DNA of 64,000 nucleotides. It comes from a virus (Duplodnaviria; Caudoviricetes). Positions 9,701 to 57,892 of this stretch are shown here, piece after piece (the stretch's first letter is position 1; every line of letters begins with the position of its first letter). The notes beneath the pieces are model-generated. The model did no database searches and was not told where the DNA came from. It saw only the letters and a program-made list of their open reading frames with translations. The stretch is taken from IMG/VR virus record IMGVR_UViG_3300028591_000103, positions 64,001 to 128,000 of that record. The stretch is one strand, 5' to 3'. The position numbers and the translations under genes were made by a program.

Positions 9701-9910
9701 CATGCGTTCCTTTGATATTGATTGCCCGCGACATTGTCTTTAAACAATATCGATGCGTGCTCGGAGAAACCAATATCTGTATATATACAATCACACTGAT
9801 GAAAACAAAACCCATCCAAAGTTCCGATTCACTTAATACAAGAGGTGGTAAGAATCAAGTGAATGATGCGCATCACAGATTCATCTCGATCATTGGTCAA
9901 CGCCGCATGA
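9701..9910 (-). ncRNA. Putative structured RNA
   Basis: Ends pair (CATGCG/CGCATG); several 9-11 bp stems that need G-U pairs available only on the minus strand; no credible ORF. Confidence 0.5.
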
Positions 9911-10021
9911 ACTTATTTTTTTTTATACACATAATCTGTGTGAGATGGTTCTTAAGCAATATCGTAAATCCCGAGATTCCATTGAATGAGAATTGTCGCT
10001 CTTTTCACCAATATGATTGGA

Positions 10022-11935
10022 TCACGCCTTCACGACCTTTTCTAACGGTGTAACAGTAGGTTCTATTCCATTTAATGTTTGAGATAAGCCGACATTGATT
10101 GCTGTTGAGATATCTTGGAATAATAATCCTTGAAGGATACCTGCCCGTTGTACAGCTTCACGGAATGCAACCTTCGTATATGACAATGGATTCACATCCG
10201 GATGTTTTCCGTATACATATGCAAACGGTTTTCCGGAATGCTGACATACACGACGTGCCATGATCTCATATGTAATTGAAGGACCTGTCAGATCGATACG
10301 ATTGATTTCCAAACAACGGAACATCATTTCGACCATGATGTTATATGGGATCTGTGGTGTTTTACTATACAAGAATACTTGGTTGATGAAGAATTCCACA
10401 TTTGCAACATTCTGTCGAATTGCAACGGAACATACACGTGATCCAGTGTCATATGGAATGATATAATATTCTGGGTCTTCTTGAATATCGTCATAAATTT
10501 TGAAATCAACGGATCCAGGAATTGTTAATCTGTCGGAGTGTAATTCTTTTCCTGCATTGTCATAGAACTTGACAGGGACTACACCGAATGCGGATGCGGA
10601 CGTTGCTTCAATGGAGAATCCCTTAAAGTCTTCGAATACGCGTGGGATAAATACCTTCATTGGAACTTTGTTGACAATGAATCCTTCTTCCACATCATAA
10701 TATTTGCTATTGACTTCAAACAGATGTTTCTTATCGATGATAGCCGCCTTCATCGTCAAGTCATGTTTTGATTTCAATTTCAAGTTCAGAAGTTTCTGTG
10801 TGATGGAGGTTGTCAACAATCCGACTTGTGTAACTCCGAGATTATGGAAAACTCTTCCTGCACATTTTCCACAGATTGCATCATGTGTGCAACATTGTGG
10901 TGAATACATTTGAACCGTTTTTCCAACAAAGTTTCCAATGTTGTCATTTGTCGTCATCACAGTTTTTCCATTCCAATTAATGTTTCGATATAACATGTAT
11001 TGTTTATTGGAATCAGTAATTGTAATTGGTATCGTAACAGATGTACCACAATCAGAGTTTGGATCCGGGTCAATATGTTCTGATTGCAATAATGCAAGGA
11101 TGATCTTTGCCATGTAGCCGGCATCAGCGGTACCAACTGCAGACGGATATGCACCGGCAACAACTGAATTTGAGAATGCTGGGATGTCTTGTTTTTTGAT
11201 ACCATCCATAAGAGATGATTCAACGACATCAAATTTTCCGGTAATATTATTGTAAACCGGACCTCTCATAACATTAATGGTTTTATAGTTATTATCCAAA
11301 TTACCATCACCAGATGCATACAGATCATAACCATAGTCACCTTTCAGATTCTTACGAACCATTCCCATGAGTTCTTTCTCAATTGCACCAGATGCAAGTA
11401 ACTGTTTCGTCGGGTCATTCGATTTCAAATCCGCTTCATGTTCTTTTAACAATTCCATCTTCCGTTGTTTTACATCATTCATAGGACGAACCAATGTTGC
11501 TGAGATGGACGATGATAAGAATGAGGCTGCCTGGAATCCCAGTGTATCACGTTTATCAACAAATTTACCAAGCGTCTTTGTATCAATTTTATCCGTGATA
11601 ACGAGATTGTTTACAATTGTATTCATCTTACCGAGATTCTTGGAATTTAATTCATTATTCCAATACCCCATAAATTGAATCAATCCCGTTGATTCCAACA
11701 GAAAACGATTCATGAATAACAACCCCAGAGTTGTTTCAAGTTCTTCTTTGACATATTCATATTCGGAATGGGATAATTTAATTGTATCAGTCGCATTGAA
11801 TGGTGGTTGTACCATCTTATGTGCAGTACGATCATAATATCCAGCAAATAAACTTTCCAAGAAATCTTTATTGAATTCGGATATATCTGCAGAGAGAATC
11901 CGTTGTTTTCCGACATTCGCATTATTTTCAGCCAT
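10022..11935 (-). CDS. RNA polymerase beta' C-terminal subunit (probably virion RNAP)
   Basis: Bridge helix TADAGYMAK, SDCGT, Zn site CCTHDAICGKCAG, trigger loop TQKLLNLKLKSKH; late promoter upstream. Confidence 0.88.
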   Translation of the reverse strand: MAENNANVGKQRILSADISEFNKDFLESLFAGYYDRTAHKMVQPPFNATDTIKLSHSEYEYVKEELETTLGLLFMNRFLLESTGLIQFMGYWNNELNSKNLGKMNTIVNNLVITDKIDTKTLGKFVDKRDTLGFQAASFLSSSISATLVRPMNDVKQRKMELLKEHEADLKSNDPTKQLLASGAIEKELMGMVRKNLKGDYGYDLYASGDGNLDNNYKTINVMRGPVYNNITGKFDVVESSLMDGIKKQDIPAFSNSVVAGAYPSAVGTADAGYMAKIILALLQSEHIDPDPNSDCGTSVTIPITITDSNKQYMLYRNINWNGKTVMTTNDNIGNFVGKTVQMYSPQCCTHDAICGKCAGRVFHNLGVTQVGLLTTSITQKLLNLKLKSKHDLTMKAAIIDKKHLFEVNSKYYDVEEGFIVNKVPMKVFIPRVFEDFKGFSIEATSASAFGVVPVKFYDNAGKELHSDRLTIPGSVDFKIYDDIQEDPEYYIIPYDTGSRVCSVAIRQNVANVEFFINQVFLYSKTPQIPYNIMVEMMFRCLEINRIDLTGPSITYEIMARRVCQHSGKPFAYVYGKHPDVNPLSYTKVAFREAVQRAGILQGLLFQDISTAINVGLSQTLNGIEPTVTPLEKVVKA

Positions 11936-11962
11936 AACAAAACCCTCCTTATGATTATGGAC

Positions 11963-11974
11963 CAGATTACTGTT
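11963..11974 (-). promoter_or_regulatory. Putative late promoter AACA-N6-TG
   Basis: AACAGTAATCTG just upstream of the beta'-C SD. Confidence 0.6.
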
Positions 11975-12000
11975 CGGTTTTATTTTTTATTTACCATATG

Positions 12001-12040
12001 TATATTATTATAAATGAATACGGGTGCAATCTACCGTATT
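12001..12040 (+). promoter_or_regulatory. Putative early promoter + 5' hairpin
   Basis: TATATTATT-ATAAA-TGAATA, then AATACGG/CCGTATT stem. Confidence 0.6.
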
Positions 12041-12132
12041 TACATGACATTTCGAGATAGAATATGTGTAATCGTACGGATTCTCATAAGATATCCGAAA
12101 TGATCAAATTTATTTTAAAGGAGGCACACGCC

Positions 12133-12708
12133 ATGATTGTCAACAACATGATCCTAATCAGGGTCGCACAAGCGAATATGCAACAGCTGTTCGCATCAAC
12201 CCAAATCACCGTTTCTGTGAAAGAAGTAGGTGATGATCCATCATTTCGACTTCTAACCATCACATTAGATGGAAAGAAAAAAGACCAAGCAGAGGTCCAG
12301 TTGGAAATGAGGGATGGGAAGGTCATCGGTATTCAATTGAATGCAAATCAGGTTACCGATGTAACGATTGATCTTGTGAGAACCGCGAAAGCGATATCCA
12401 AGAAACTCGAAGAACTCAGAAATATAAAAACGGTTTATTATTATGATGATAACTATTTGATCTCGGATTTTAGAGAGATCGGTATCGATTCTGATGATGG
12501 AAGAAGAGATTTATTAATCAATAATAACAAAATCTATTCATTGGTCAAGTGTCGAAAGAATCGAGTAATCACAGAGCCACTGACGGAAGCACAACTGATC
12601 AATCTGATTCATATTGTGGCTAACTCGAAACATAGCGAACTGGATGTTCGCGATGCAATTGTTCATACCTTCGTCGATTATGACGAGTATGAGTGGGAGG
12701 AAGAATGA
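12133..12708 (+). CDS. Hypothetical early protein
   Basis: SD AAGGAGG before ATG 12133. Confidence 0.75.
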   Translation: MIVNNMILIRVAQANMQQLFASTQITVSVKEVGDDPSFRLLTITLDGKKKDQAEVQLEMRDGKVIGIQLNANQVTDVTIDLVRTAKAISKKLEELRNIKTVYYYDDNYLISDFREIGIDSDDGRRDLLINNNKIYSLVKCRKNRVITEPLTEAQLINLIHIVANSKHSELDVRDAIVHTFVDYDEYEWEEE

Positions 12709-12722
12709 GAGGATGGATGGAG

Positions 12723-12759
12723 GTGGGGGCGTTTGCCCCCACTCATCCGATTTTTTTTT
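12723..12759. terminator. Terminator between convergent genes
   Basis: GTGGGGGC-GTTT-GCCCCCAC plus T9. Confidence 0.8.
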
Positions 12760-12760
12760 G

Positions 12761-13207
12761 TTATCGTAATCCGTGATAGAGTAATGTGTAACGTGGTTTA
12801 TCTTCATCGAAGAATTTCCAACGAATGAAATCATCCAATACAATTGCAACACCTGAAAGGAAGAACCAATAGATGGAATTCCGTAAACAGATCTGTCCAT
12901 ACAGATTGAAACATCTGTCGGAATAATCCCACACATTCCATCCAAGTTTGATGTTCACAATGTATCCGGAAATGAGTTCCATCGCAGTAATCACAAAACA
13001 ACCAATCCCCATTTGCAACAGGAATGGTGTTTTCCATGTATACCATTCGTTGAGTAATCCGATTATGACAAAACATAATCCACCAACGATGAACATAGAC
13101 CAATGTGTGAAACCACGTCCAATAATTTCCATCAACGCATAAATGATTCCACCGATAACGAATAAAATGAATTCACATATCAAGAATTTCTTGATGGATT
13201 CTTTCAT
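12761..13207 (-). CDS. 4-TM membrane protein, ABC_trans_CmpB-like
   Basis: GFTHWSMFIVGG, WNVWDYS, NLYGQICL motifs. Confidence 0.8.
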   Translation of the reverse strand: MKESIKKFLICEFILFVIGGIIYALMEIIGRGFTHWSMFIVGGLCFVIIGLLNEWYTWKTPFLLQMGIGCFVITAMELISGYIVNIKLGWNVWDYSDRCFNLYGQICLRNSIYWFFLSGVAIVLDDFIRWKFFDEDKPRYTLLYHGLR

Positions 13208-38400: not shown

Positions 38401-39576
38401 ACGAAGTGTGTGGAATGAAGCAATATTCTTTCCAACACGATTCAATGAAATTGGCGGTGTACAAATTGGAAGATGCTCATCCACATATGTATTTTGTGAA
38501 TGGATTCTACCACCATATTCGTTTGTCACATGATTGTATTGATCATCATAAACATACTGTGTTCCCATCATATCCAGATAGTTTACTGCAGGGAATACTC
38601 CGGACACTTCATGGAAATGTTTGATCATATAGATACGGACATGAGCTTTCTCCGATTTATACCGTTCGAAGTCAACGGTTGTTTTTTCTTGCATGTTTGT
38701 AATAGCACAACCATTTCCTGTCATACTACCAAAGTTCGGAGAAATCATAATCTCTTTACTGACGATTGAGTCAGAGATCTGAACAATACATCTGCATCCA
38801 TTGAACTGTGATCCAACACCCTGGATTCCCATATCACTATAACGAATCACAGGATTGGCTACGTTCAATTTGGTAATCGGTATTTCAAAATCCAGAACCT
38901 TTGATCCATCCAGTTTGTAGATTGTGAATGTAACGTCGGCAGCATATCTCCATCCGATTTTAAAACGGAAGCCCTTTTCATCAATACCGACATACCAGTC
39001 ATCGGACATATAACCATTCGTACAACAAATGACTGTGAATTTCAGAATCGAAGACATTTCGTCCGATAAGAATCGTGCTGCTGGAATATATTGGCGATTC
39101 TCTGTTTCATAAAATGCATGAAGTTTCTGACGAACAAATTCATCACGTTCTCCAAAATGCATTTGATCGAAAGGTACATCTACGATGTAATAGTGATTGA
39201 ATTTATCTCGACAAACATGTTTCTTGTCTGTCTGAGGATATTGGGCAATGACAGCATGTGTATTTACGAGCATCTTACTCATTGCATTCTGCAATGATTT
39301 ACGATACGTTTCTGCGAGAGATTTATCCAGATCTTCGAAGGTATAATTTGATCGCTCCATCAAATCAACCAACATCTGGAATCCCATATTATTTCCGACA
39401 ACGTTATATGGTTGCTCGGTTAATAACATGGATGATGGTTCCATTTCTATCAGTTTCTGATATCGCTGATAAATGTTCTTCCATTTGGTATCATTGTATG
39501 TCTCATGACCTTTTCGTATGCCGGTCATGTACTGATGGAAATGATGAAACCAATCATGGTAATTCATGATAGCCAT
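32410..39576 (-). CDS. Very large probable virion structural protein (2388 aa, baseplate/tail-associated)
   Basis: Single ORF with its own late promoter; C-terminal YEFWVNGRFI beta repeats; function inferred from context. Confidence 0.7.
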   Translation of the reverse strand: MAIMNYHDWFHHFHQYMTGIRKGHETYNDTKWKNIYQRYQKLIEMEPSSMLLTEQPYNVVGNNMGFQMLVDLMERSNYTFEDLDKSLAETYRKSLQNAMSKMLVNTHAVIAQYPQTDKKHVCRDKFNHYYIVDVPFDQMHFGERDEFVRQKLHAFYETENRQYIPAARFLSDEMSSILKFTVICCTNGYMSDDWYVGIDEKGFRFKIGWRYAADVTFTIYKLDGSKVLDFEIPITKLNVANPVIRYSDMGIQGVGSQFNGCRCIVQISDSIVSKEIMISPNFGSMTGNGCAITNMQEKTTVDFERYKSEKAHVRIYMIKHFHEVSGVFPAVNYLDMMGTQYVYDDQYNHVTNEYGGRIHSQNTYVDEHLPICTPPISLNRVGKNIASFHTLRQCYALIDTMKSYKNDVLDLGHERNIKYTDTDARQYYTKHVINPAKYLLKLLRKCYETYYNGAIITSLINMEYLREFEKFLLDLDELTHADPSWNGVQRVDIDMLYGDNYDIFLKAVLAPLYRPPFSTLGTYDIMYPNYFTSSDKDDYRINRPVAEQCFIALKYNHDDDIPCWIFDVPDIKHFKGIENVFYVNDNLRGDELFKFFFLYTDTENPVELKTDNLTDIEFRDFDAFTKEVDRHIGYVKYWYVENQLMKLSKIYYQKHDMNTEISILSKIMKQKIDGDIFLEYPSEMNYEFSNAMTDNVVDYTEESYRAPFALNFLFYTLSMMQGNEDKLAHYLMYMVTRKKFYPRYADLKLSEINMDLPKEKINYSVIHLPPSALSSDDKELCVFPDVEGVTTYAGMQYPLDANHDMFESPQDVGVRYPFVFNVYENDTKYNYVMQDELDHDHYIQFGSYDSEVLSYYDDARVANIVSIFLAEIYDVINDFTTDYKSIWNTQTRIDSYRKVIDRTCKKMKAYVDSQGGSLQAHHPSTLMVANYFLLGSLLNPMLNVVNTLQIQIEQLTRLSQIGYDPYTIQYLVNQVLMCMRKVYECTGFKSVAVRRIRRLYLQLKKMNQPMSLHEYRQWAETLDRMMLIQMSMYYDDNPNVVDDATKHKLEFWAAHLNLMVTTQLLGEPDGVNQFDVTKEVIDSFYDSSSQANQFLQLLVDYCNDVMKNYIFDFYVMDAVDLTTRPQPSILGAPPAYAELLIEKTSPLVQFPDVQNDQQGHYTVTLHVDYEHIAGTGYRVLRLVPTCENAFVNGNLYAQWQKSVKYYDKNGNAINTYTYNFTFTKVSISSDILKTFERYSGLQCIPMEVMNVHERFDVNDHDDVVNVRHAELHYELLCGNHFIPLTHLSEYCNPPREANLQGPWDKLYLSCARMNTLSVVDQSNRPTKEMFFKPCHVYHNEVVGVTLPSLGGKYFVGQTVYAYTDDGLSLFPMTITSINHSQNHGILELKVDEHHARWFHTTDPVVMEKYLTTDVTCTIVNDNIRNFLDEFSEWDGEFYPIPPLSTAAHVPADDFIDCYSLPGDPIFVETNSDYVYTRLNWMFHDEIPNRLDETIDPKHHFVYIGSGDLMQTSQLGHIMIINTIRHDFNPLTNPELYPLLRHEPNDHNIWDRERKSLIYDQEKKKYTSLFNETIKTIHDMQGRIRSLSYQMSQAKTVAEKRKIETQISDLTLKYQYQVEFQDRLTLYMAYLETPSTWYNVITYDAAMVYISNGRAKLDHTFRPHIQDLPYTDQVEVRLYDWEHKRWLDPSEYSVRSVVESGANHAHFDDDPTYDWTMNVLTQLIIEFTDQSYTSKKILIYYVYDHSDIFDDITMSGMNCKVRFRPVLALDKQQTESHNPYDKIRLRKHYDENEIYYPAELEDVPEDFLEASGIESAIMFKRPSRSGLFTTGSPIRFCDMMAKNDQTTFDYDDFDIYVKHPISNITTDPDIQIPKFNTSIIRMFDGFASDTYVTLACVNNNANAEFNGIASSVMFTALITGTEGSPSIRVLETTADEYVDADFVCYIKPDPSHPMSGGVITVHMSHASIPLTHYADWVKLEEFEDWKGFSNIKHRLIPDEVILVPKDPDVDLQTMEVYLQNHYQLDTDHDVSPYNLGDNDLFTVYYDKEKELRYPVGNIFKNTFRERLTIDLALNQDVNTIRTNYIGICRYASQSIPEDGIIDLTGYIATPLSRDRYEFWVNGRFISDPDDIIILSPTSLQLRNLTSLRNLDIVELVDDVVDSKLFPKGNMYIDLDGNVYGSYYEILKRHANVMDESVQYIFNLNTKYGIDEYLTDDIRRSNNVDVEPDILDNINADTGDDPVSYNQLHHIPTINGVPIYHLTSTSMGFMEYSNRKLLEQYDLVWKRERLNGSIKLSHLSDYDIKDRQVQRLHVRKLEEGEGFEIYTSGITDYCFTLYISNYQNSAIDDTANTLKIFPFLRSGIRIRIDDSFENKWLISTIPNTPPIQIK

Positions 39577-39602
39577 AAAGATAGACTCCTTTCATTGAAA
39601 GT

Positions 39603-39614
39603 TACAGAACCGTT
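39603..39614 (-). promoter_or_regulatory. Putative late promoter AACG-N6-TA
   Basis: AAAACGGTTCTGTAA. Confidence 0.65.
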
Positions 39615-39616
39615 TT

Positions 39617-39634
39617 GTGGGGCCTAAGCCCCAC
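39617..39634. terminator. Hairpin between divergent promoters
   Basis: GTGGGGC-CTAA-GCCCCAC. Confidence 0.6.
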
Positions 39635-39658
39635 GTCACGAAACCTGTTTTTCATATA

Positions 39659-39677
39659 TATATAATTAATATGAATA
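39659..39677 (+). promoter_or_regulatory. Putative early promoter
   Basis: TATATAATT-AATA-TGAATA. Confidence 0.6.
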
Positions 39678-39837
39678 GAAGAAATCCATGGTGGATCGAA
39701 AGGAGGTGATAGATATGACAAATGTCGTAATCATCACCGTTCCTGTAGACACTGAAATCATTTGTGAGTAATGATTAAGAGTGACGAGCCCCCAAATTTA
39801 TTTGGAACGTCAGAAACCATGGATTTCTAATATTCAT
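39671..39837 (+). ncRNA. End-paired structured RNA enclosing a minigene
   Basis: AGAAATCCATGGT (39680-92) pairs with ACCATGGATTTCT (39816-28); ATGAATA pairs with TATTCAT; inner hairpin 39782-39812. Confidence 0.55.
39715..39771 (+). CDS. 18-aa peptide MTNVVIITVPVDTEIICE
   Basis: Full SD AAAGGAGGTGAT just upstream; TAA TGA double stop. Confidence 0.55.
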   Translation: MTNVVIITVPVDTEIICE

Positions 39838-39906
39838 TAAAGAAAGAGTCTTTAAGACTCAATAAATATTTTAAACTCCGCAAGGAGAGAAAGTGAAGGT
39901 ATTAAA

Positions 39907-40461
39907 ATGAAAAACATGAATTCTAAAATCAACGAGAACCTCGATACTCTTAAGTCTCTGGCGTTCGATGCCAGAAATGCTCTCATGGAAATGAGAGCAA
40001 CATTTGTCGCATGGAATGAGGAAGCATTCCGTGCGATCGTCATGGAAGACGCTGAACTCACAGAGGGGCTTATCAATGAGCTCCGCGAATGCGGGTTCGA
40101 AACAGAATCCATTGATGACGGTCGCAAGATCGTCAGCGAGCTCATCGAAAATCTGGGCGAAACTGCCCGGGAAATGAATGAAGCTCAACGTGAACTGACT
40201 CTGCAGAATCTCGTCGGTGGCTCAACAAGAACCTGCTCGGAGTGTCATGCCCCGATAAACGACACCGACGAATATTGTCCGATTTGCGGTTCCAAGGAGG
40301 GTGCACTGAAGCCCTATGTAGAGCCGCGGAGAATTGAGTGTGTCACATGTAAATGCGGACGCACTTATGATCAAGAATATCGCTTCTGCCCGAGCTGTGG
40401 TAAAGCGAATTCTAAGCACAGCTTGAACAAAGAACCTGATGCATTCGACATATTCAAATGA
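39907..40461 (+). CDS. Helical protein with C-terminal double zinc ribbon
   Basis: CSEC..CPIC, CKC..CPSC. Confidence 0.8.
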   Translation: MKNMNSKINENLDTLKSLAFDARNALMEMRATFVAWNEEAFRAIVMEDAELTEGLINELRECGFETESIDDGRKIVSELIENLGETAREMNEAQRELTLQNLVGGSTRTCSECHAPINDTDEYCPICGSKEGALKPYVEPRRIECVTCKCGRTYDQEYRFCPSCGKANSKHSLNKEPDAFDIFK

Positions 40462-40558
40462 TTGTGCCGAATGCTACATAATTCGGAGTCCCGCACAGTA
40501 GGAGGTTCAGCTCCAGAGATTCCTGTGCGGGATGAAAAGATTGAAAAGGAGATGAAAT

Positions 40559-40598
40559 GAGGGGCGCATCACGCGCCCCTCTATCATTATTTTTTTTT
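40559..40598. terminator. Terminator between convergent genes
   Basis: GAGGGGCGC-ATCAC-GCGCCCCTC plus T-tract. Confidence 0.8.
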
Positions 40599-43500
40599 AG
40601 CCATTCCAGATTTTGCCAATATGCCGTTTTAATTCCACCAAGATTTTGTTAGCTGATGCGGTAACAATCATACTTGGAATCATACGTTTCATGATACTGC
40701 CAGCGGATACAAACATGGAGATTTCAGTTTCCGGATCATCTTCCGTAAATGGTTCCTGTCCTTCTGGAATGACTTCGGAAATAACTTGCTTGGATGCTGC
40801 ATAAACAACACACTTATCTCCGATTGACACATCATCACCATGTTCAATATAAATCTCGATCATGACGTCACAATGTTGTCCTTTAATTGATTGACCATTG
40901 ATCGGTTCTGTCGGTAATGAATACAGTGTATCCAACTTATACACGGAATTCGATTTATCATGTTTATCCAGAATTTTACGTTTCTGGATATTCTCTTTGA
41001 AATGTGCATCAAGCAATTCAAACAGAGAAGGAGATAACTTATCCATTCCCTTTGTTGTATACATTCGAATCTCTTTGACAGTTCCGGCATGTTTGGATTT
41101 GATAATACGTTTCGCAGTATCAAGTGAATTGGAGTCACTCTGGAATGCTTTCAGGAATGCATCAACTGCTTTATCACCAGTATCTCCAAGACCGAATACA
41201 ATCAACGGATCTCCGATTTCAACCTCGTCACCAACTTTGACAATGGACTCCACATCATCGGTTGCATTTAACTTTGATGCCTGACGCATTGTGACATGTG
41301 TTCCAAGTCGTTTTGACATCTTCTCTGTGATCATACCAGCATCCTCATATGTTGCATATGTTCCACAGAAAGCAACCTTTGCAAGCGGACCAACATTCAT
41401 TCTCACCATTCCAGAAGAATCCTTGGAGAAGAACTTTTCATGATATGCCAAAATATCATTCTGTTCAAATGTATCTCCGGGTTCGAAATTGGATTTCAGT
41501 TTGTTATCCACAAAGAATCCGGATCCGGGGTTGAATGAATATCTGTCGGATACTGGTATCGCTTGTTTCTTTTTTGATGCGTATTCGACGATCATGTATC
41601 CATCGCTGATCTCCAACACTTTACCATTCTCTTGTGCAGTAACGGCAAATTCATCAGAAACATATGCAGCAACCAACTCATCGACACCATTCGAAACAAG
41701 AACCGGTTCCGCTTCATCAGTAGGAAGAATATGTCCTGTTTGAGATGTTGCGATTGCCGTACGAATTGCGTCATCACGAGAAACAGTTCCTGGAGTTAAT
41801 AACTCGGAAAATGATGCGAGTTGCAGATCATTGTAATCTGCATCGATACCTTTTGTGGAAGTATAACCACGAACAGATTCCAATTTTGGATCAACCGTCA
41901 ATTGTCGATTGATACCAACGTTATTGGAGTTTGGCGTTGAGATGGCAATCTTACCAACCATGGAATCATCAAATGAACGTTTTGCTTCAGAGTATGCTTT
42001 ATCTTCATTGACTCCACCGAATCCCTTCTTAGAAACATTTTCAGTTTCATGAAGTTCAATCATAGGATTCAATGCAGAAGAAGTCGCAATCGTTTGTACA
42101 TTCATCAACATTGTCATGATTTCATTCGGATTAAATTTCAATTTAGATTCTTTGAATTTTGATCCTGGAGCATTGTTATACTTTGATATTGCAACAGCCA
42201 ATGCGTGATGAATCATTGCGGGTATAATTTCGGAAGAACGAATACGATACAATGAAGCATTACTCTCGGATGTGAAATTATTATCCGCCAACAGATTTGA
42301 TGCATAAACCAGCATGTCACACAAATTATCCGGTAACTTATAATGATGACACACATCTTCTGTGATGGCATCTACAAAGAAATGATAATTTGTAATGAAT
42401 GTTGTTTTCTGTGAAAACTGTTTGAAGAAGATCTGATTGAACATATCCACATAGATTGAATTATCATCCATGATCGTAGATTCAAATTCGGTTGTTGTAT
42501 ATTGTCTCGTATTGATTCGATAGAATCCATTGAACAACAACTGATTCTGAATGGTGTTCTGAACAGCCAATGTTTTATCCTTGAACGGAATCTTCATGAA
42601 TCCTTCTGCGTTTTCCTTGGGTCCAATATAACGATATTGTGCACCAGATCTCTTCAGCAATGAAGACAGACCCTCCCATGCAGCAATCGATACACCGACA
42701 GGCAACATGATACCCATCAGCTTCATTTCTGCATACATGGATAATTTTGCTGGTTTGCCCTTATTATACGCTTTCAATATTTCTTCAGGAAGTGTCGGGA
42801 GAATATTGTCCGTAATGGTTCTGTTATGACGATCCAAGCCCGTTTCTGTATTGATAACAAGTGGAACTTGATCGATCATTCCACAACAGAATTCATTTTC
42901 ATTCACAGTAACAAAATTGAATTCACGCAAACATTGTTCGCGGTTGAATATGATTCTGCATTTCCGTTCTTTATTTTCATAAGAGAACCATTTCTTTGCA
43001 AACTCGTCGTATTCAATCGTAGAAACAAATCGGGAATTCGTCACAGAAGAAGAACCGTATTTGACATATGGATTCTTACCATTGGCGTCATTTTTCTGTG
43101 CTACGGCCTTCATCAACAGGGTCAAATCAACCAACGATTTTGTGTCATATCGTTGAACAGAAATCTTGTTGTAGTTAGATGTCAACATGACAAGTTTCTT
43201 ATTGATCTTTAGAATTGGAATCGGGAATTCCTGTTTTCCGATCGTATACCAAGATCCATTATACAAGAACTTTCCATTCACCATCTTCGGTATGCGGATG
43301 TTGATGTGTGATTGTGTACCAGTCTTCTTATTCTTCAAAGATACTTTCCAATTATGCATCAATGAAGTGGAATCGGAAATATCCGTGACTTCAACATTCG
43401 TAACAACAAATCCTTCTGGAAGTTTTTGTAATGTCATAAATGTTGCGACGATATCCTGATCCATCATTTTTTCTTCATATTCTTTTGATATCATTGGGAA

Positions 43501-44793
43501 TGAAGACCCATGCAATGCTCCATGATTTGTGGTTGTTAATTTCAACGGTTTAATCGGAGGAGGGAGTGGTACATCTGTTACGGAAGAAACAGCACCAGTG
43601 TTCAATTCCTTTAAACGAATTTGACCGATGTTTGAACGCAATCTCATCTCACGTGCTGATGTGACTGTATTCATTGTACTTTGATCATTTGAAACCTCAC
43701 GAGATCCTGCCAATTGGGAAGAAGCTTGATTGATTAATTGATTCTCTACAGGATGATCTCCACCTTGTTCCAGATCTTGAGAGATTCGTTTATAATCCGA
43801 TACAGGTGCATTATTCGGAGAAATACGATGAATCAACGATGCATTGATTTCAAATGTCTTTGCATTGTATAATTCATCTTTCTCTGTTTCTGTAGAATCA
43901 ATACCGAATCGATCTTTGATATTCTTCAAAGATTGTTTGAGATTCCCTGAACCACCATCTGTATTGGTGGCATTTTCTCCCTGATCTGATTCCGATGTAT
44001 CTGCATTGATTTCATCCATCAAATCGTCAATGCTGGAATCACTCATAGATGCGGGCTTTGATGATACTCCTTTAAAAGGAACACCGATTGTTGAACAAAT
44101 GTTCTGCAAAGCTTCGGAATCACTCGGCATGATAGAACGCAAATCCAGTTTATAATCTGCTCCGGTAGAACGAAGGATCACTGTTGTATCTTGTGTGGAT
44201 TTTGTTTGACCAGCAATACAAGCTCCCAACAGACCATTGATCAAATCCGCGTTCATGGAATCTTTACTGCTTCCATCATAAATTTTCACACGGTCTGTAT
44301 TCACAACCCATATTCTTCGTTTTGCCCCAGAGAACATTTGGGCAATTGTATTCATCATCCCAATAACATGATTACCCATATATTCGGGAGACAATTCTCG
44401 AATGATACGGTTCAGTTGATAACATACATCCGAAATCGGGACATACACATTTGTATTTGCCGTTCTTTTAATCGGATATGGTTCTACCGTTAATTGCGGA
44501 ACCATCTTCTGTTTCATCAAGTATTCGACACGTTTTTTATATTCCTGCTGAGATAGTTGATACTTGAAATTCATTGGACCTATCTTACTTGCGACGGAAT
44601 ACGGAATAATAATATTTTTGTAATTGGTACGAGGTGGTGGCATTTTCTTGATCAATTCCAGATCATATTCATAAGAACCTGCCATCAAAAATACAACAAC
44701 ATTATCCTTCTGATCCGGAAGCGCATATGGTGTTGATACCGGTTGCAAATTTCTTCCAGTGGAAAGATCTGTTGCTTCTTGAATAAAGCTCAT
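40597..44793 (-). CDS. RNA polymerase beta subunit, large (virion type, phiKZ gp178-like)
   Basis: TPNSNNVGI, DDAIRTAIATSQTGH, ATYEDAG, IGDK, SKQVIS, IMKRMIPS; start MSFIQEA after AGGAG. Confidence 0.88.
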   Translation of the reverse strand: MSFIQEATDLSTGRNLQPVSTPYALPDQKDNVVVFLMAGSYEYDLELIKKMPPPRTNYKNIIIPYSVASKIGPMNFKYQLSQQEYKKRVEYLMKQKMVPQLTVEPYPIKRTANTNVYVPISDVCYQLNRIIRELSPEYMGNHVIGMMNTIAQMFSGAKRRIWVVNTDRVKIYDGSSKDSMNADLINGLLGACIAGQTKSTQDTTVILRSTGADYKLDLRSIMPSDSEALQNICSTIGVPFKGVSSKPASMSDSSIDDLMDEINADTSESDQGENATNTDGGSGNLKQSLKNIKDRFGIDSTETEKDELYNAKTFEINASLIHRISPNNAPVSDYKRISQDLEQGGDHPVENQLINQASSQLAGSREVSNDQSTMNTVTSAREMRLRSNIGQIRLKELNTGAVSSVTDVPLPPPIKPLKLTTTNHGALHGSSFPMISKEYEEKMMDQDIVATFMTLQKLPEGFVVTNVEVTDISDSTSLMHNWKVSLKNKKTGTQSHINIRIPKMVNGKFLYNGSWYTIGKQEFPIPILKINKKLVMLTSNYNKISVQRYDTKSLVDLTLLMKAVAQKNDANGKNPYVKYGSSSVTNSRFVSTIEYDEFAKKWFSYENKERKCRIIFNREQCLREFNFVTVNENEFCCGMIDQVPLVINTETGLDRHNRTITDNILPTLPEEILKAYNKGKPAKLSMYAEMKLMGIMLPVGVSIAAWEGLSSLLKRSGAQYRYIGPKENAEGFMKIPFKDKTLAVQNTIQNQLLFNGFYRINTRQYTTTEFESTIMDDNSIYVDMFNQIFFKQFSQKTTFITNYHFFVDAITEDVCHHYKLPDNLCDMLVYASNLLADNNFTSESNASLYRIRSSEIIPAMIHHALAVAISKYNNAPGSKFKESKLKFNPNEIMTMLMNVQTIATSSALNPMIELHETENVSKKGFGGVNEDKAYSEAKRSFDDSMVGKIAISTPNSNNVGINRQLTVDPKLESVRGYTSTKGIDADYNDLQLASFSELLTPGTVSRDDAIRTAIATSQTGHILPTDEAEPVLVSNGVDELVAAYVSDEFAVTAQENGKVLEISDGYMIVEYASKKKQAIPVSDRYSFNPGSGFFVDNKLKSNFEPGDTFEQNDILAYHEKFFSKDSSGMVRMNVGPLAKVAFCGTYATYEDAGMITEKMSKRLGTHVTMRQASKLNATDDVESIVKVGDEVEIGDPLIVFGLGDTGDKAVDAFLKAFQSDSNSLDTAKRIIKSKHAGTVKEIRMYTTKGMDKLSPSLFELLDAHFKENIQKRKILDKHDKSNSVYKLDTLYSLPTEPINGQSIKGQHCDVMIEIYIEHGDDVSIGDKCVVYAASKQVISEVIPEGQEPFTEDDPETEISMFVSAGSIMKRMIPSMIVTASANKILVELKRHIGKIWNG

Positions 44794-44834
44794 ATATTTC
44801 ACTCCTAACGAAAAAAAAAAATGGAGGTGTTTGT

Positions 44835-45005
44835 GTGTTTCATTTAAAACAAAACACAACTTATTATCACACATGTCCGCTGTGTGGAGCGAATCTTGAT
44901 CCAGGTGAATCGTGTGATTGCCAAAAGGAGCAATCAACTGCTCCAAAGGTTACCGAAAAGTCCGATAACAATATGAATGAAAGGGGTGTAATGAAAAATG
45001 AATAG
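44835..45005 (+). CDS. 56-aa Zn-finger protein (absent from ORF track)
   Basis: SD GGAGGTG, GTG start; YYHTCPLCGANLDPGESCDC. Confidence 0.75.
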   Translation: MFHLKQNTTYYHTCPLCGANLDPGESCDCQKEQSTAPKVTEKSDNNMNERGVMKNE

Positions 45006-45267
45006 TAATAATATCCCAAAAGCAGCGTTGTATTTTATCACATTGGAAGACATCACGGGAAATTGTCATGATGAAAATGATATCGTATACAATTTTGCGT
45101 TACCGCTTGAAAAAAGAATGGAACAATTTCTTGATGTGATGGAGAAGAAATTCGATCATATATTCTCGCCGGATGAAATTGAAATATTATCTTCATATGG
45201 ACAACATCAAGCACATGATTTCATAAATAAAGTCCGTGAATATATTTATCCTTGGATGCAACCATGA
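44998..45267 (+). CDS. Hypothetical protein
   Basis: SD AAAGGGGTG; overlaps the upstream gene. Confidence 0.7.
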   Translation: MNSNNIPKAALYFITLEDITGNCHDENDIVYNFALPLEKRMEQFLDVMEKKFDHIFSPDEIEILSSYGQHQAHDFINKVREYIYPWMQP

Positions 45268-45273
45268 GTGTAA

Positions 45274-45439
45274 TTCCCAAACACTGTGGTCTTTTCCTTT
45301 CTATTCTATTTTTTTTATTCTATCGCCGGGTTACCCATTCCCGACGATACTCCTTTCTTTTTTGAGAACGATTTCTGCCATAGGCATAATTATCATCCTT
45401 CGTGATAATCAACACCACAGATATCCGTTTGTTTGGGAA
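45274..45439 (-). ncRNA. End-paired structured RNA with SD motifs and an 18-codon ORF
   Basis: TTCCCAAACA/TGTTTGGGAA and CTGTGGT/ACCACAG closing stems; 45321-45349 stem needs G-U on minus; late motif AACG-N6-TG at 45429-45418. Confidence 0.5.
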
Positions 45440-45450
45440 GAAAAAATGTA

Positions 45451-45470
45451 CGGCGGGCAATTGCCCGCCG
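45451..45470 (-). terminator. Terminator
   Basis: CGGCGGGC-AATT-GCCCGCCG followed by a U-tract on minus. Confidence 0.8.
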
Positions 45471-45476
45471 TGCGAC

Positions 45477-46076
45477 TTATAATTTGTCTCTGTCGAGAAA
45501 TTCTGCTTTCAAGATTGCATTTTCCATATTCACCAATCTCTGAATCGTTGAAATGGATACAATCATTTTCTGTCTGTCTTCCGGGGAAGATTTGTAATAC
45601 TTTGAAACCAACTGTGACACATTATTTACAATCGTCGGTTTCAATGTTGCAGTCATCTTTTGACGAATCTCCGCAGGTGTAATATTCCAGTATGTCAAAA
45701 CATCATGGAACATATGTAAGAAGTTTACCGGTTCATCATAGAATCCCCATGACATAATAAACTTCATATCCAAATCCGCGGATATCATTGTGACTTCACA
45801 TAAAATACCTGGTTGTACCTTATGGATACTTTCCAGTATTTCTGTCAGTTTCGATTGCGATATTGTATTTGTGTCTGAATTCAATAACTTCACAAGTCGA
45901 TCATTTAACGCAGCCGGTTTAATAACACCTTCACCAACAGCTTTGCATAATGCTGTCATCAGGATGTCGTTATTGACTTTATGCGAGAAATCAATATCCG
46001 GCTTCACCTCAACAACTTCATGAAGTTTGTTCATCGCTTCTTGCGACATCATCGATTTCGCTTCGTCCAATGTCAT
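45477..46076 (-). CDS. Hypothetical early protein
   Basis: SD GAAAGGA; early motif upstream. Confidence 0.75.
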   Translation of the reverse strand: MTLDEAKSMMSQEAMNKLHEVVEVKPDIDFSHKVNNDILMTALCKAVGEGVIKPAALNDRLVKLLNSDTNTISQSKLTEILESIHKVQPGILCEVTMISADLDMKFIMSWGFYDEPVNFLHMFHDVLTYWNITPAEIRQKMTATLKPTIVNNVSQLVSKYYKSSPEDRQKMIVSISTIQRLVNMENAILKAEFLDRDKL

Positions 46077-54018: not shown

Positions 54019-54626
54019 TGATTGACTTTTCATACATTGGACAGGATGCATTTGTCATTCAATACGAAGATCTCATTTCTTTGATCGGAGTAAATGCTGT
54101 GAAACTTCTGAACTCCATGGAGGATAAAGAAGAAATCACACAAATGACATTGGATTATTTCAATCGAACGAAGTATGATATCCCGACATTCATTCAAGAG
54201 AAAACCGGAAAGTTTATATCGATGGAAGATCTATATAAATCCGGAATCGCTTGTCAATTCAATTTGGCATATGCATTCAAAATGATGCAAGCTGCCGCAC
54301 AGAATGGTTTGTCGAAATTATATGTTCATTCGAATATGTATTCTCCAATCATTGAAAAGCTCATCGGATTTCTGGAAATACCAACAAATTATGTGCACGG
54401 GGATATACTCCCCGTGTTACATAATTTACCCAATTGCACATATACAACCTCCAATCCAGAAAACATCCGAAGATGCATGGAAGCAGATGTTCCATTCGCA
54501 TTGACCATTGTGGATGATTTTCAATATCTCGCTCCAATCGTAATGGATGATAAATTTATCAACAAATTACGTGATAAGAATATTTATGTCCAATTCACCG
54601 GTGTGATATCAGCCGGGTTCATTTGA
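54018..54626 (+). CDS. Hypothetical protein, possibly degenerate HAD-like fold
   Basis: TGATG overlap; alpha/beta pattern, IVDD. Confidence 0.55.
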   Translation: MIDFSYIGQDAFVIQYEDLISLIGVNAVKLLNSMEDKEEITQMTLDYFNRTKYDIPTFIQEKTGKFISMEDLYKSGIACQFNLAYAFKMMQAAAQNGLSKLYVHSNMYSPIIEKLIGFLEIPTNYVHGDILPVLHNLPNCTYTTSNPENIRRCMEADVPFALTIVDDFQYLAPIVMDDKFINKLRDKNIYVQFTGVISAGFI

Positions 54627-54658
54627 TATCAATCGCATTACAAGGGAGGCCAAACAGC

Positions 54659-56287
54659 GTGAAGGAACCAGTCAACAAGACCCTGTTATATTTATACGAT
54701 CCGAATGCAGAGTATACGTATAACGCAAACCACGGTACGGAATATCCGTATAACGGATTCCCTACAGGACAATATGGCAGAAAATATAAAAAGACCCGAT
54801 TCATTAATTGGGAACCGATTCCAGAAGACATTATCATCCGTCATGCAGGTTCACAAATCTTTGTGAATTTCTCTGCGCTGTTTCCGGATGATGTTACGGA
54901 TCCGGCTATCCAATTATTCCAAATGCGAACTCGTAGATTGGATTTACAGAATCTGATTTGCGAACAAATCAATTTCTTCACGGCATTATATGATGAAGAT
55001 AACGATCTGATTACATCAATGCTGATTGCGAAGTTTATGACTGATTCACAAACATATACAATCGTCACGTTTGATGAATATCAGAAACAGTTATTCGACA
55101 TCTTATTCCCAGAAAGAACAATTGAGAAGATCAAGAAGATGGTAGAAGAGAATGATGTTGGTGATGATGTTACAGGCTTATTCCCAGAGGATATGCCACG
55201 CGATATTTTCATCGTGTCATTCATGATCAAGGTGATGCATATTTTCATTGAACATTTCATCATTTCTACAGGAAATTCTCCAAAGGATTTGTATGAACTG
55301 TTTGCTGTTGCATTTACCAATGTCATGAATCATATCAATCCAAACATCTACGTGTTGTTGTATGATTATGTCTACAACAGCGTCGTACAATCCTGCTCAT
55401 CCAATGCGAACATTTATGACATGCAGGCAATCGATGGTGTCACAATCCCGACAACCACACAGTTTGTGATGCGGAAATCATTACTTTGTGATGGTTTGAT
55501 CAAGCTGACATTTGCTTCTGCATGGGATAAAATCAACAAACGTCCGACATACTCCTGTGTTGGATTGATCAAAGCGATTATCACACAAGCATCTTTCGTA
55601 ACCAGAAAGGTTCAGTTGAGATATTCATTGGTCAATGTGGATGATGTTTCTCAATTACTGTCAGATCAGATATCAAATAACTCTCCGATTTCAATGGTTC
55701 GTTCATTCAATCCTGGAGAGTATTCTTGTATGTATAAAGATTTGACAATCATCATCGCACATATTGCATTGGAAGTCGATTTGTCTCCGGTTGATTTCTA
55801 TCTGAATCATCTGACTCAAATGAACGATCTTTCCAAGATTCTCATCGAATCTGTCTTATATAATAAATTCCATTCTTCTATTTCGATCAATACATTGTCT
55901 ATGAAACAGAAGTACATTCTTCTGTTGTATGTCAGAAGTTTGATTATGAAAATATATAATCTTTCTGAAGAAGACACAAAATGCAATGAATTGATCAATA
56001 TGTTGACAGCTCGAACAGTAACACATACAACAAAAACATTGACGACGAAGGATTTGAATTCCATCAAGAAATATGTCAAACTGAATAACTTGAAAGAGTT
56101 CCTGCTTTCAGAAAAGAATGTCAATATCTTTGTTGAATCCATCATGCATTCTGTGTTGTCATCATACACAGTGGTGAATCATAATGATCCGAATCTGTTA
56201 GATACACCGTTACAGTATGATGCCAATACAATGACATTGAATCTGCTGGATATGTGTGTATCTCTGTTTGATTACATTGCGCATTAA
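54659..56287 (+). CDS. Probable non-virion RNAP promoter-specificity subunit (phiKZ gp68 / AR9 gp226-like)
   Basis: ~540-aa helical protein immediately before beta'-N and near SbcD; GTG start after GGGAGG; call rests on size and context. Confidence 0.5.
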   Translation: MKEPVNKTLLYLYDPNAEYTYNANHGTEYPYNGFPTGQYGRKYKKTRFINWEPIPEDIIIRHAGSQIFVNFSALFPDDVTDPAIQLFQMRTRRLDLQNLICEQINFFTALYDEDNDLITSMLIAKFMTDSQTYTIVTFDEYQKQLFDILFPERTIEKIKKMVEENDVGDDVTGLFPEDMPRDIFIVSFMIKVMHIFIEHFIISTGNSPKDLYELFAVAFTNVMNHINPNIYVLLYDYVYNSVVQSCSSNANIYDMQAIDGVTIPTTTQFVMRKSLLCDGLIKLTFASAWDKINKRPTYSCVGLIKAIITQASFVTRKVQLRYSLVNVDDVSQLLSDQISNNSPISMVRSFNPGEYSCMYKDLTIIIAHIALEVDLSPVDFYLNHLTQMNDLSKILIESVLYNKFHSSISINTLSMKQKYILLLYVRSLIMKIYNLSEEDTKCNELINMLTARTVTHTTKTLTTKDLNSIKKYVKLNNLKEFLLSEKNVNIFVESIMHSVLSSYTVVNHNDPNLLDTPLQYDANTMTLNLLDMCVSLFDYIAH

Positions 56288-56312
56288 TATATAAATAGAA
56301 AGGAATTAAGAG

Positions 56313-57695
56313 ATGAAAGCCGAACGTATTAATCTGGAAACGGAATTCCTTACAGATATGACAACACACAATGGATTCCGTATCGAGAAAGAAGACCATT
56401 ATGCACCGACAAACGTCGATGCATTAGTGGATTCTTCTAAGTTCACGGATTGTGAATACAGATGTGATTGTGGTGCATTCATTGGCCAAGATCTGATTGG
56501 TCAGGTTTGTCCCAGATGTAAATCGGAAATCTCTCTGCATTCACTAAACTTTGCATATACTGGATGGATTGATTTGAAAGGACACAAGGTCATTTCTCCG
56601 GTATACTATATTATTCTGAAACGTGTTCTCGGAACGAATGTACTTCGTATGATTCTGGGTGATTATAAATGCAAACAGAACATCAAGTACAATGAGAACG
56701 ATAAAGGAATTGAAGAAGAAAAGAAACAGAAACGTGCAGGAAGAGTTTCGCAGGATGATATCCGTTATATTCTGAAGAAGGTTCCGAAAACTAAACACTG
56801 TTACCAGGGCATTGGTCACGATCAATTCTATGAGAGATTTGAAGAGATCATTGCTGCATGTGCTCCAAAGAATAATCCGGAAGTTGATATTCTTTTGAAG
56901 AATAAAGAAGCTGTATTCACTTCATATATTCCCTTATATTCAACAGCATTCCGCCCTGTATCCAAAACATCAGAAACCAAGTTCTATCCAAAAATCAATA
57001 AATGGTTTGCAATGATGGTTTCTGTTGCATGCAGAATGGAAAACATGGTTCTGGATATTGAAAAGATTCAGGCATTGAATTACATTCAGAAATGCTGGTT
57101 AGATGCTGTTGAACATGTCATCAAGAATGAAATGTCTAAGAAAGAAGGATTCGTTCGTTCAGAGATTGTTGGTGGTTCTTTCACATTCTCTGGACGTGCT
57201 GTTATTACTTTGGATATTTCATTGGATGTTGATGAGGTTGATTTACCATACTCCATGGTCATCACCGCATATCAATATCGTCTGACATATATGCTTGCGA
57301 CTCGTTATAATATGACATTGGAGCAGGCATATCTGTTTGTCAATACATATGAAAAGAATGACATCATCATTTCATTGTTGGATGAAATCATGGCAGAAGG
57401 GCAATGGGTAATGTATTTACGTGAGCCGACAAACAATCTTGCGTCGATTGTATTGGCAAAAATCCGTCGATATAAGATCGGTGATGACACAATGTCTGTA
57501 CCTCTCGAAGTTTTGCAAGCATTGAACGCAGACTTCGATGGTGATGCATTAGACATTCTCTTCTTGATGGACAAGAATCTCGTAGAACGATTTGGTGCAT
57601 TCCATTATTCATGTCTGTCAGACCGTGTCAATGAAACCGTTAAATTGGATTTGTTAGCATGGTCTGCAGTTGCAATGGGACGTATGACAGAATGA
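56313..57695 (+). CDS. RNA polymerase beta' N-terminal subunit (probably non-virion)
   Basis: Zn finger RCDCG..CPRC, FSGRAVI, LREPT, catalytic LNADFDGD. Confidence 0.92.
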   Translation: MKAERINLETEFLTDMTTHNGFRIEKEDHYAPTNVDALVDSSKFTDCEYRCDCGAFIGQDLIGQVCPRCKSEISLHSLNFAYTGWIDLKGHKVISPVYYIILKRVLGTNVLRMILGDYKCKQNIKYNENDKGIEEEKKQKRAGRVSQDDIRYILKKVPKTKHCYQGIGHDQFYERFEEIIAACAPKNNPEVDILLKNKEAVFTSYIPLYSTAFRPVSKTSETKFYPKINKWFAMMVSVACRMENMVLDIEKIQALNYIQKCWLDAVEHVIKNEMSKKEGFVRSEIVGGSFTFSGRAVITLDISLDVDEVDLPYSMVITAYQYRLTYMLATRYNMTLEQAYLFVNTYEKNDIIISLLDEIMAEGQWVMYLREPTNNLASIVLAKIRRYKIGDDTMSVPLEVLQALNADFDGDALDILFLMDKNLVERFGAFHYSCLSDRVNETVKLDLLAWSAVAMGRMTE

Positions 57696-57702
57696 TTAGA
57701 AT

Positions 57703-57738
57703 ATGGCGGGGCAATGCCCCGCCATTCTATTCTTTTTT
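57703..57738 (+). terminator. Terminator
   Basis: ATGGCGGGGC-AAT-GCCCCGCCAT plus T-tract. Confidence 0.85.
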
Positions 57739-57739
57739 C

Positions 57740-57892
57740 AATATGAAGAGCCGCGGGAAGACTTTTTACAAGGAGGCCTACGGCACAGTGAAACACTCAA
57801 GTTTAGGAGGCATGAGTAATATTGGTCACTTCGAATCGGGGGAGCTAATCCCGATCTATTCACAACGGCAAGAAACCGCGGCTCTTCATATT
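57740..57892 (+). ncRNA. 153-nt structured RNA closed by a perfect 17-bp stem
   Basis: AATATGAAGAGCCGCGG...CCGCGGCTCTTCATATT; inner hairpins with AGGAGG/GGAG; G-U pairs favour the + strand. Confidence 0.6.

Follow-up and report, generated by a model that had tools for sequence, protein, structure and literature searches.

A predicted end-paired micro-gene cassette and three other intergenic elements in an uncultured jumbo phage

We analysed four intergenic islands in a window of 64,000 nucleotides (nt; bases 64001-128000 of a 151,638-bp IMG/VR record, here G000, with 39% G+C and an estimated completeness of 56%), and found that island 2 (39671-39837) is the sole member, among the four, of a conserved family in which a micro-gene lies within a covarying helix. 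A first-pass annotation of the window had treated islands 1 (9701-9910), 2, 3 (45274-45439) and 4 (57740-57892) as one dispersed family of end-paired small RNAs or minigenes acting on translation. The island coordinates and most of the features described there proved correct; the family itself was not recovered. The explanation that we consider best for all four islands together, and in which we have somewhat more belief than doubt, is that they are four different things, and that island 2 is the clamped micro-gene domain of an early transcript, a clamp being a long helix that joins the two ends of an element.

The record is a fragment of an uncultured jumbo phage carrying split multisubunit RNA polymerase genes. 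Parts of the beta and beta-prime subunits are encoded in the window, and these are ~25% identical to the subunits of phiKZ-, phiR1-37- and AR9-like jumbo phages. We found no phage record near-identical to the window, and four related contigs, three of which were compared in full: G001 (258.5 kb, 96% complete), G002 (83 kb) and G003 (262.7 kb, 98% complete). These three and G000 are the four related genomes referred to below.

A micro-gene family with paired ends

The features of island 2 and its surroundings, and the copies of its family, are the following.

39646-39673, plus strand: putative early (virion RNA polymerase) promoter, an AT-rich block, 6 nt, then G at 39673, by analogy with phage AR9
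39671-39692, plus strand: 5' arm of the closing helix P1, from fold, inverted repeat, arm pairing and consensus structure
39699-39710, plus strand: Shine-Dalgarno (SD) site of the micro-ORF (open reading frame), 8 nt before the ATG, pairing with codons 5-8 of the ORF (helix P2)
39715-39771, plus strand: micro-ORF of 18 codons plus stop, ending in EIICE, with the purifying selection of a five-copy family
39816-39837, plus strand: 3' arm of P1, from the same four lines of evidence as the 5' arm
39846-39906, plus strand: short hairpin, then the ribosome-binding site of the cargo gene, a leader segment common to other cassette copies
39907-40461, plus strand: cargo gene for a zinc-ribbon protein of 184 amino acids (aa), with an unrelated gene at the same position in each genome
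39671-39837, plus strand: family copy 1 (island 2), found by all four search types
G000:145102-145277, minus strand: family copy 2, outside the window
G003, near 47.2, 174.5 and 193.3 kb: family copies 3-5

The slot of G003 that corresponds to island 4 holds an end-paired element whose 19-codon ORF is a clear homologue of that of island 2 (18 codons). Searches with a degenerate pattern, a six-frame peptide hidden Markov model (HMM), nhmmer and a covariance model returned an identical set of five copies. The peptide HMM recovered them at E = 1e-9 to 2e-11, with the next match at E = 3, and the covariance model (R1) at E = 1e-20 to 1e-36, with island 2 itself scoring 174 bits (E = 1e-36). The 174.5-kb copy of G003 is the orthologue of island 2, and G001 and G002 hold no copy of the family. 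Degenerate micro-ORF patterns, run against all viral and metagenome contigs, matched just two contigs besides G003; the viral matches were identical to the 47-kb copy of G003 at the locus and added no new diversity (the single metagenome match outside G003 was not compared).

The pattern of substitution among the five copies is that of coding sequence. The ORFs are 18-19 codons long and all end in EIICE. Across codons 2-18, 7 first, 6 second and 15 third codon positions are variable (15 of the 17 third positions), and pairwise ratios of non-synonymous to synonymous change (pN/pS) range from 0.11 to 0.43, with pS of 0.39-0.86. Eight residues are invariant, each encoded by 2-3 synonymous codons. 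Four of the five copies have stops in both of the other frames and the fifth has them in one of the two, and a GGAGG-type site stands 8 nt before the ATG in 4/5 copies. The ORF of island 2 thus qualifies, by comparative criteria, as a protein-coding gene of 18-19 codons. Its predicted product is acidic and rich in Ile and Val (6-7 of 18 codons), with a central Pro-x-Gly/Asp turn, the C-terminus EIICE and no membrane-spanning stretch, a composition that suggests a beta-hairpin. The first-pass annotation had noted two ORFs of 18 codons in the islands; both exist (39715-39771 on the plus strand and 45331-45387 on the minus strand), and conservation was found for that of island 2 only.

The helix that encloses the micro-gene also bears the marks of selection. 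It is 18-25 bp long in all five copies, which fold with z-scores of -3.2 to -7.8. Cognate 5' and 3' arms pair with -18 to -31 kcal/mol, compared with -3 to -20 kcal/mol for arms taken from independent copies, indicating that the inner parts of the helix have been rewritten yet are still complementary. The outer 7 nt of the arms are common to four copies; the inner arms differ between copies. On a model-fitted alignment, 83.7% of paired cells were occupied by pairs, as against 29-48% when partners were slid by 1-3 columns, and 20 of 50 pairs had changed on both sides, as against 3-10 when slid. The covariation score was reached by 0 of 500 shuffles, and in P1 alone, nine pairs have changed at both positions. 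The consensus fold also has a hairpin that joins the SD and start codon to codons 5-8 (P2), a further hairpin (P3) across the stop codon, and another toward the 3' end. The notion of a fold-back-gated peptide, put forward in the first-pass annotation, therefore fits island 2, with its SD and start paired to its own codons inside a covarying clamp.

Island 2 is directly preceded by a ~33-nt AT-rich block of which there are three copies in the record (at 103.65, 143.7 and 145.3 kb), with a variant at 2.97 kb. The block consists of an AT-rich 13-mer, 6 nt and a G, a layout shared by the early promoters mapped in AR9, in which transcription starts at the G (PMC5312081). AT-rich motifs centred near -10 mark the virion-polymerase promoters of all RNA-polymerase-encoding jumbo phages (PMC7598289). 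By analogy, we infer that transcription would start at 39673, placing the 5' end of the RNA within P1. We also considered a leaderless ORF of 12-15 codons that runs from the first ATG of the element into the SD and is in frame in 4/5 copies; it was rejected because the predicted start, by the same analogy, is the G of that ATG, so that the ATG would lie outside the RNA.

The promoter and clamp stand at the head of a replacement slot. Cargo genes at this position are mutually unrelated in the four genomes, and each is unique to its own genome (184 aa at window 39907-40461, 195 aa at G003:174782, 148 aa at G001:171657 and 261 aa at G002:58073). The cargo sits between the shared promoter cassette and a conserved RNA polymerase beta-like gene, and the flanks are conserved on both sides. 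At the same slot, the promoter is present in G002 together with a hairpin of 73 nt that has the same termini and contains no ORF, and in G001 together with a short leader and no clamp. Elsewhere, the copy of G003 at ~47.2 kb has a terminator on either side and is followed by no gene; G001 has a single terminator at this site. That this copy stands alone speaks for a product made by the element itself.

On the minus strand at 39577-39616, and also in G001-G003, a conserved block before a gene of 2388 aa has the form of an AR9 late promoter (AAC-type tetramer, 6 nt, TA); by that analogy it may serve this giant gene as a late promoter facing away from the early cassette. Outside the window, on the plus strand of G000:2983-3115, an early-promoter block is followed by a 133-nt end-paired domain with a 16-bp stem (-43 kcal/mol), with no micro-ORF and with two terminator hairpins behind it; we consider the domain a candidate for an early non-coding RNA that stands alone and follows the clamp plan. 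G003:76409-76640 (L035) contains two consecutive end-paired domains behind an AT-rich promoter motif, the second of which (76526-76639) has a 22-bp stem, termini that resemble those of the micro-gene family, and no ORF. At L050:7072-7390 (G001:87072-87390), a perfect 22-bp inverted repeat surrounds a 64-aa ORF (L050:7159-7353), indicating that the clamp design can also enclose a larger small gene. This ORF has a weak match to the GnsA/GnsB-toxin Pfam family, below threshold (E = 8e-4; 19.8 bits, cut-off 27), and its C-terminus recalls the EIICE micro-peptide.

Folding of the four islands and their separate identities

We compared the predicted fold of each island with those of 200 dinucleotide shuffles. 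Island 2 gave z = -7.2, with 22-nt arms that are 91% complementary; island 3 gave z = -6.2, with a bulged 16-bp closing stem; and island 4 gave z = -5.0, with 17-nt perfect arms. None of the 200 shuffles was as stable in any of these three cases, and the minimum-energy folds join both ends of each island in a long helix. By contrast, island 1 gave z = 0.02, with 98/200 shuffles as stable, and its ends pair over just 6 bp. We conclude that islands 2, 3 and 4 are real intergenic RNA domains with paired ends, and that island 1 has neither the end pairing originally claimed for all four islands nor a fold better than those of shuffled controls.

An ungapped inverted-repeat scan of the whole 151.6-kb record ranked island 2 first and island 4 second, both hits being fully intergenic. 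Two inverted repeats in the real record scored >= 17, compared with 0.0 per shuffled genome (10 shuffled genomes). A genome-wide scan for gapped stems with a loose energy threshold did not discriminate, the shuffled and random controls scoring about equally. The description of this genome as packed gene-to-gene is roughly right, but folding is also strong in many other intergenic gaps because they contain terminators, and several terminator-bearing gaps have z of -6 to -7. Terminator gaps have no end pairs, compared with 24 in the gap around island 2 and 17 in that around island 4; the distinguishing mark of these two islands is end pairing, not folding energy alone.

No sequence or covariance-model search connected the remaining islands to island 2 or to one another. 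An nhmmer search with the DNA profile of the five copies did not find islands 1, 3 and 4, and covariance model R1 gave no match to them at E <= 10, island 4 scoring 2.9 bits in a dedicated search. In local alignments against 300 shuffles, P was 0.55-0.76 for the minus strand of island 3, the plus strand of island 4, and island 1; P was 0.03 for the plus strand of island 3 against one family copy, a value that we take as chance given the many comparisons. We therefore rejected the idea that islands 1, 3 and 4 descend by decay from the family of island 2, nhmmer, covariance model and local alignment all being negative, and the likeness of the start of the minus-strand ORF in island 3 to the EIICE family was at chance level. 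Rfam, suggested as a check in the first-pass annotation, gave no match to the islands: there were 0 matches in the whole window at gathering scores, and 0 at E <= 1 for the islands within 39550-45500. A tRNA/tmRNA search returned nothing on the islands. What recurs is a long helix joining the ends of a 130-190-nt intergenic RNA domain, and this common plan does not extend to island 1, which is unstructured. Pooling the four islands as one RNA family in later work is not warranted.

The G+C hairpins said to adjoin each island are present, and are as follows.

9671-9700, no strand assigned: hairpin with a 13-bp perfect stem, ending the upstream DHHA1-domain gene and bordering island 1
39617-39634, no strand assigned: hairpin near island 2, with no T tail on either strand and not listed as a terminator; kept in two relatives
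45450-45471, no strand assigned: terminator hairpin near island 3 that scores in either orientation, the minus strand having the better T tail
57703-57725, plus strand: intrinsic terminator, from the terminator listing, of the RNA polymerase beta-prime-like gene, near island 4

These hairpins are ordinary intergenic context rather than a shared functional part. The features of islands 1, 3 and 4 themselves are as follows.

9701-9910, plus strand: island 1, not significantly folded, part of an intergenic slot with conserved non-coding blocks
9778-9798, plus strand: early-promoter-like motif in island 1, AT-rich with a TATATATA core, 6 nt, then G, by AR9 analogy
45274-45439, no strand assigned: island 3, an end-paired domain that follows the stop of an 89-aa gene and precedes the terminator, with arms at ~45275-45290 and 45413-45438
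45331-45387, minus strand: 18-codon ORF in island 3, not conserved in positional counterparts
57740-57892, plus strand: island 4, a singleton clamp with 17-bp perfect arms at 57740-57756 and 57876-57892
57903-57938, plus strand: AT-rich promoter-like core and ribosome-binding site of the next gene, downstream of island 4

Compensatory change, also named as a check, was seen in the island 2 family and between the counterparts of island 3 in G003 and G002, island 4 being a singleton. The counterparts of island 3 lie at the same borders and are end-paired elements of 143 nt (G003) and 126 nt (G002). They have a few short blocks in common; their inner arms differ from each other and are complementary within each. 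Island 3 itself can barely be aligned to them, with the borders, the clamp, a CTCCTTTC-type word and the 3' hairpin being kept. In G001, the stop of the 89-aa gene runs straight into the terminator and there is no element. The CTCCTTTC-type words are on the plus strand, and the terminator after the slot is oriented to the plus strand in G003 and to the minus strand in the window. No ORF is common to island 3 and its counterparts on either strand, and the 18-codon ORF is probably not a gene. We read island 3, from these sequence comparisons, as a fast-evolving structured domain that occupies one slot in 3/4 relatives and would be kept by selection for pairing.

Island 4 has no homologue among the sequences searched by exact arm search and nhmmer, and an exact search of viral contigs for its arm gave none. 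It carries orphan AGGAGG words at 57771 and 57805 on the strand of its neighbours, with ~0.03 expected from the density in the window, and no ORF after these words closes inside the element. Over the whole window, AGGAGG occurs 28 times compared with 9.3 expected, mainly at gene starts, and once in island 2 (39701). The element lies between a terminator and the promoter-like core of the next gene; the start region of the promoter cassette recurs in its first 8 nt, without the AT-rich core upstream. Island 4 may be a promoter-less relic or a new derivative of the clamp cassette, and its perfect 17-bp helix suggests a recent origin or selection. It stands at a junction where gene order differs between G000/G001 and G002/G003: in the region of window 57696-58400, the gene that follows the RNA polymerase beta-prime-like gene in G002/G003 sits ~22 kb off, on the opposite strand, in G000/G001. 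These junctions hold island 4 and two micro-gene copies, and the G003 slot that corresponds to island 4 contains a family copy. Island 4 is a lineage-specific clamp without its own promoter, at a rearrangement junction.

The slot of island 1 contains several conserved non-coding blocks, with insertions and deletions (indels), in all four genomes (window 9662-10025, L039:6515-6925, L053:1905-2285 and L060:12995-13530). Among them are an AT-rich block that resembles a promoter, a TTGACA-like word, and a T tract with a conserved ~12-nt word behind it. The motif at 9778-9798 would, by AR9 analogy, be an early promoter. We rejected a structured small RNA running from this motif to the T tract (9798-9925; z = 0.34), and also a conserved small protein in the slot, the indels in the conserved blocks breaking any common frame. 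Rather than an end-paired island, island 1 is either a conserved regulatory spacer or a small transcript without structure.

Searches of the four genomes found no Y1 transposase or TnpB-type gene, and no match to the reverse transcriptase (RT) family RVT_1 in G000, G002 or G003. G001:154773-155321 is the sole RT among the four genomes (RVT_1, 46.9 bits, in a 369-aa open frame), and G001 is without the EIICE micro-gene family and without the island 3 element. A retron non-coding RNA (msr/msd) was accordingly dismissed as an identity for the elements, there being no RT in the genomes that carry them.

Proposed mechanism and alternative explanations

We propose that island 2 forms the 5'-terminal domain of a probable early jumbo-phage transcript. 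The AR9-like AT-rich motif ends 6 nt before the G at 39673, where the RNA would start, and the first ~20 nt of this RNA would pair with a segment 125-150 nt downstream (P1), enclosing a mini-cistron composed of a strong SD paired with its own codons (P2), the 18-codon ORF and a hairpin over the stop (P3). The conserved acidic micro-protein would be the functional product. The clamp would stabilise the RNA by burying its 5' end and would gate translation, and it may offer a site for RNase III-type cutting, by which the mini-messenger would be freed from the cargo gene. The promoter, the clamp and the leader would make up a repeated regulatory cassette that heads variable early genes.

Several points weigh against this proposal. 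The family has only five members from two phage genomes, two of them orthologous, for which reason the covariation statistics are weak; moreover, the structure was projected from island 2 and the alignment of the five copies was fitted to it. One orthologue has a weakened P1 (-19 kcal/mol), and the ~193-kb copy of G003 has a poor SD. The promoter class is assigned by analogy to a phage whose polymerase is just ~25% identical. Four of the five copies precede a gene, leaving room for a cis-regulatory role. For islands 3 and 4, RNA status is argued from folding energy, with just three poorly alignable sequences for the former and no homologues for the latter, and strongly negative z-scores are common among other gaps through their terminators.

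A broader form of the proposal, which we put forward tentatively and regard as doubtful, is that phages of this clade start infection with clamped early RNAs that would act as nuclease-resistant, translation-gated capsules. The 18-residue, beta-hairpin-like peptide would hit a host target, and the clamps without an ORF (islands 3 and 4 and G000:2983-3115) would be RNA-only versions.

For island 2, the main alternative, which we think unlikely, is that the family consists of cis-acting leader cistrons (upstream ORFs), with translation of, or stalling on, the Ile/Val-rich peptide setting the expression of the cargo gene and with no function in trans. The copies that precede a gene do so at 70-110 nt, with a common leader segment before its ribosome-binding site, and both the share of Ile and Val codons and the sequestration of the SD by codons of the ORF are as this explanation would have them. 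However, the cargo genes are mutually unrelated and one intact copy has a terminator next to it in place of a gene, observations that speak against a leader. In addition, we saw no pairing between the element and the ribosome-binding site of the cargo gene, and no terminator/antiterminator alternative. Residue conservation is expected for an arrest peptide and for a trans-acting one alike, and does not discriminate between them.

It is improbable that the islands are DNA-level elements, such as miniature inverted-repeat transposable elements or recombination scars or sites, with the RNA fold being incidental. Presence and absence at otherwise conserved slots, family copies at four different slots, the position of islands at borders of variable or rearranged gene blocks, and the outer 7 nt shared by the arms of four copies would all be consistent with such elements. 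However, the inner arms are wholly different between copies and still complementary, indicating selection for pairing and not for a transposase-binding sequence, and the shared outer nucleotides coincide with the predicted promoter start region, which also occurs without a clamp. The borders have no target-site duplication, the copies are few (two or three per genome) and old (pS 0.4-0.86), and the transposase genes sought in the four genomes were not found.

The first-pass annotation had suggested, as one possibility, dispersed SD and anti-SD decoys that titrate ribosomes or RNA-binding proteins. The words themselves are present, as AGGAGG in islands 2 and 4 and as the CTCCTTTC-type in island 3, and a decoy role for them is unsupported, and we consider it highly improbable. 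Two AGGAGG words within the 153 nt of island 4, without a usable ORF, speak in its favour, together with the anti-SD-like word that island 3 and its counterparts carry on the plus strand, which is identical to the usual 3' tail of 16S rRNA. However, the SD word of island 2 is accounted for as the ribosome-binding site of a real micro-gene; for the words of islands 3 and 4 there is no family across which a position could be conserved; the word of island 3, if that island is read from the other strand, is an ordinary SD; and one or two copies per genome are few for titration. Least probable of all, with hardly any weight in our view, is that island 2 is a type I toxin-like locus whose fold-back mRNA silences a toxic peptide until processing: it has the layout of long 5'-3' pairing and a sequestered SD, but its peptide is acidic, of 18 residues and without a membrane-spanning stretch, no antisense promoter or antisense RNA was seen, and the element lies behind a predicted strong early-type promoter in a lytic phage.

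Significance and comparison with known systems

Genes of 18 codons are invisible to standard annotation. To our knowledge, very few phage micro-proteins have been described, several of which are potent host-takeover or anti-defence factors. The EIICE micro-gene has unusually clean comparative support, in which a coding signature is combined with a covarying RNA clamp, and it is located in what would be the first nucleotides of early jumbo-phage transcripts. It thus offers a tractable case for how jumbo phages stabilise and time their first messages, and for how repeated regulatory cassettes shuffle early genes. If clamped early RNAs are a general device of this clade, then island 3, island 4 and G000:2983-3115 would be versions of the same device made of RNA only.

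The proposed clamp on island 2 combines elements of several known systems. Toxin mRNAs of the hok and AapA types are typified by long 5'-3' pairing in which the SD is sequestered, and island 2 resembles hok/sok and AapA1/IsoA1 in having long-distance 5'-3' pairing and SD sequestration around a very short ORF. It differs from them in that its peptide is not hydrophobic, no antisense partner was seen, and the RNA would be an early transcript of a lytic phage. SD-like words without an ORF are reportedly a feature of STAB-SD, attributed to Agaisse and Lereclus (1996), and of the polypurine 5' stabiliser of SP82, attributed to Hue et al. (1995), both works being cited in PMC3997798. By analogy, a 5' exonuclease could be blocked by 30S subunits bound to the ORF-less SD words of island 4; unlike STAB-SD, these words lie inside a clamp without its own promoter.

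The hbs mRNA of Bacillus subtilis is protected against RNase Y and RNase J1 by pairing of its 5' and 3' untranslated regions (14 bp) together with a strong SD (PMC5737220). Island 2 would likewise be a small messenger with paired ends and a strong SD; however, hbs is a cellular gene of 92 codons, whereas the clamp of island 2 is 18-25 bp long and encloses an 18-codon cistron within what would be a longer transcript. Early units of AR9/phiKZ-type phages share with island 2 an AT-rich block of ~10 nt, with its centre near -10 and a G start after a further 6 nt, a likeness that is a pattern match only, and their genomes likewise encode the subunits of a split multisubunit RNA polymerase. By contrast, we did not find clamped 5' domains or enclosed micro-ORFs described in PMC5312081 or PMC7598289, the words 'hairpin' and 'stem-loop' being absent from the AR9 text.

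The closest parallel for the genomic setting is provided by the PeSLs of T4-type phages, which are repeated promoter/stem-loop cassettes at the borders of variable genes (PMC2839356, PMC4122927). Both systems consist of a repeated early-promoter block and a stem-loop at variable-gene borders, with unrelated cargo behind the same cassette, and for island 2 we infer recombination at the cassette. The two differ in that the PeSL promoter is of the sigma-70 type, whereas that of island 2 resembles the jumbo-phage virion-polymerase type, and in that the stem of island 2 is not a terminator but a 130-190-nt clamp able to enclose a conserved micro-gene. Overall, the clamped EIICE micro-gene cassette is an undescribed variant of known themes, namely early-promoter cassettes, end-paired small messengers and micro-ORFs.

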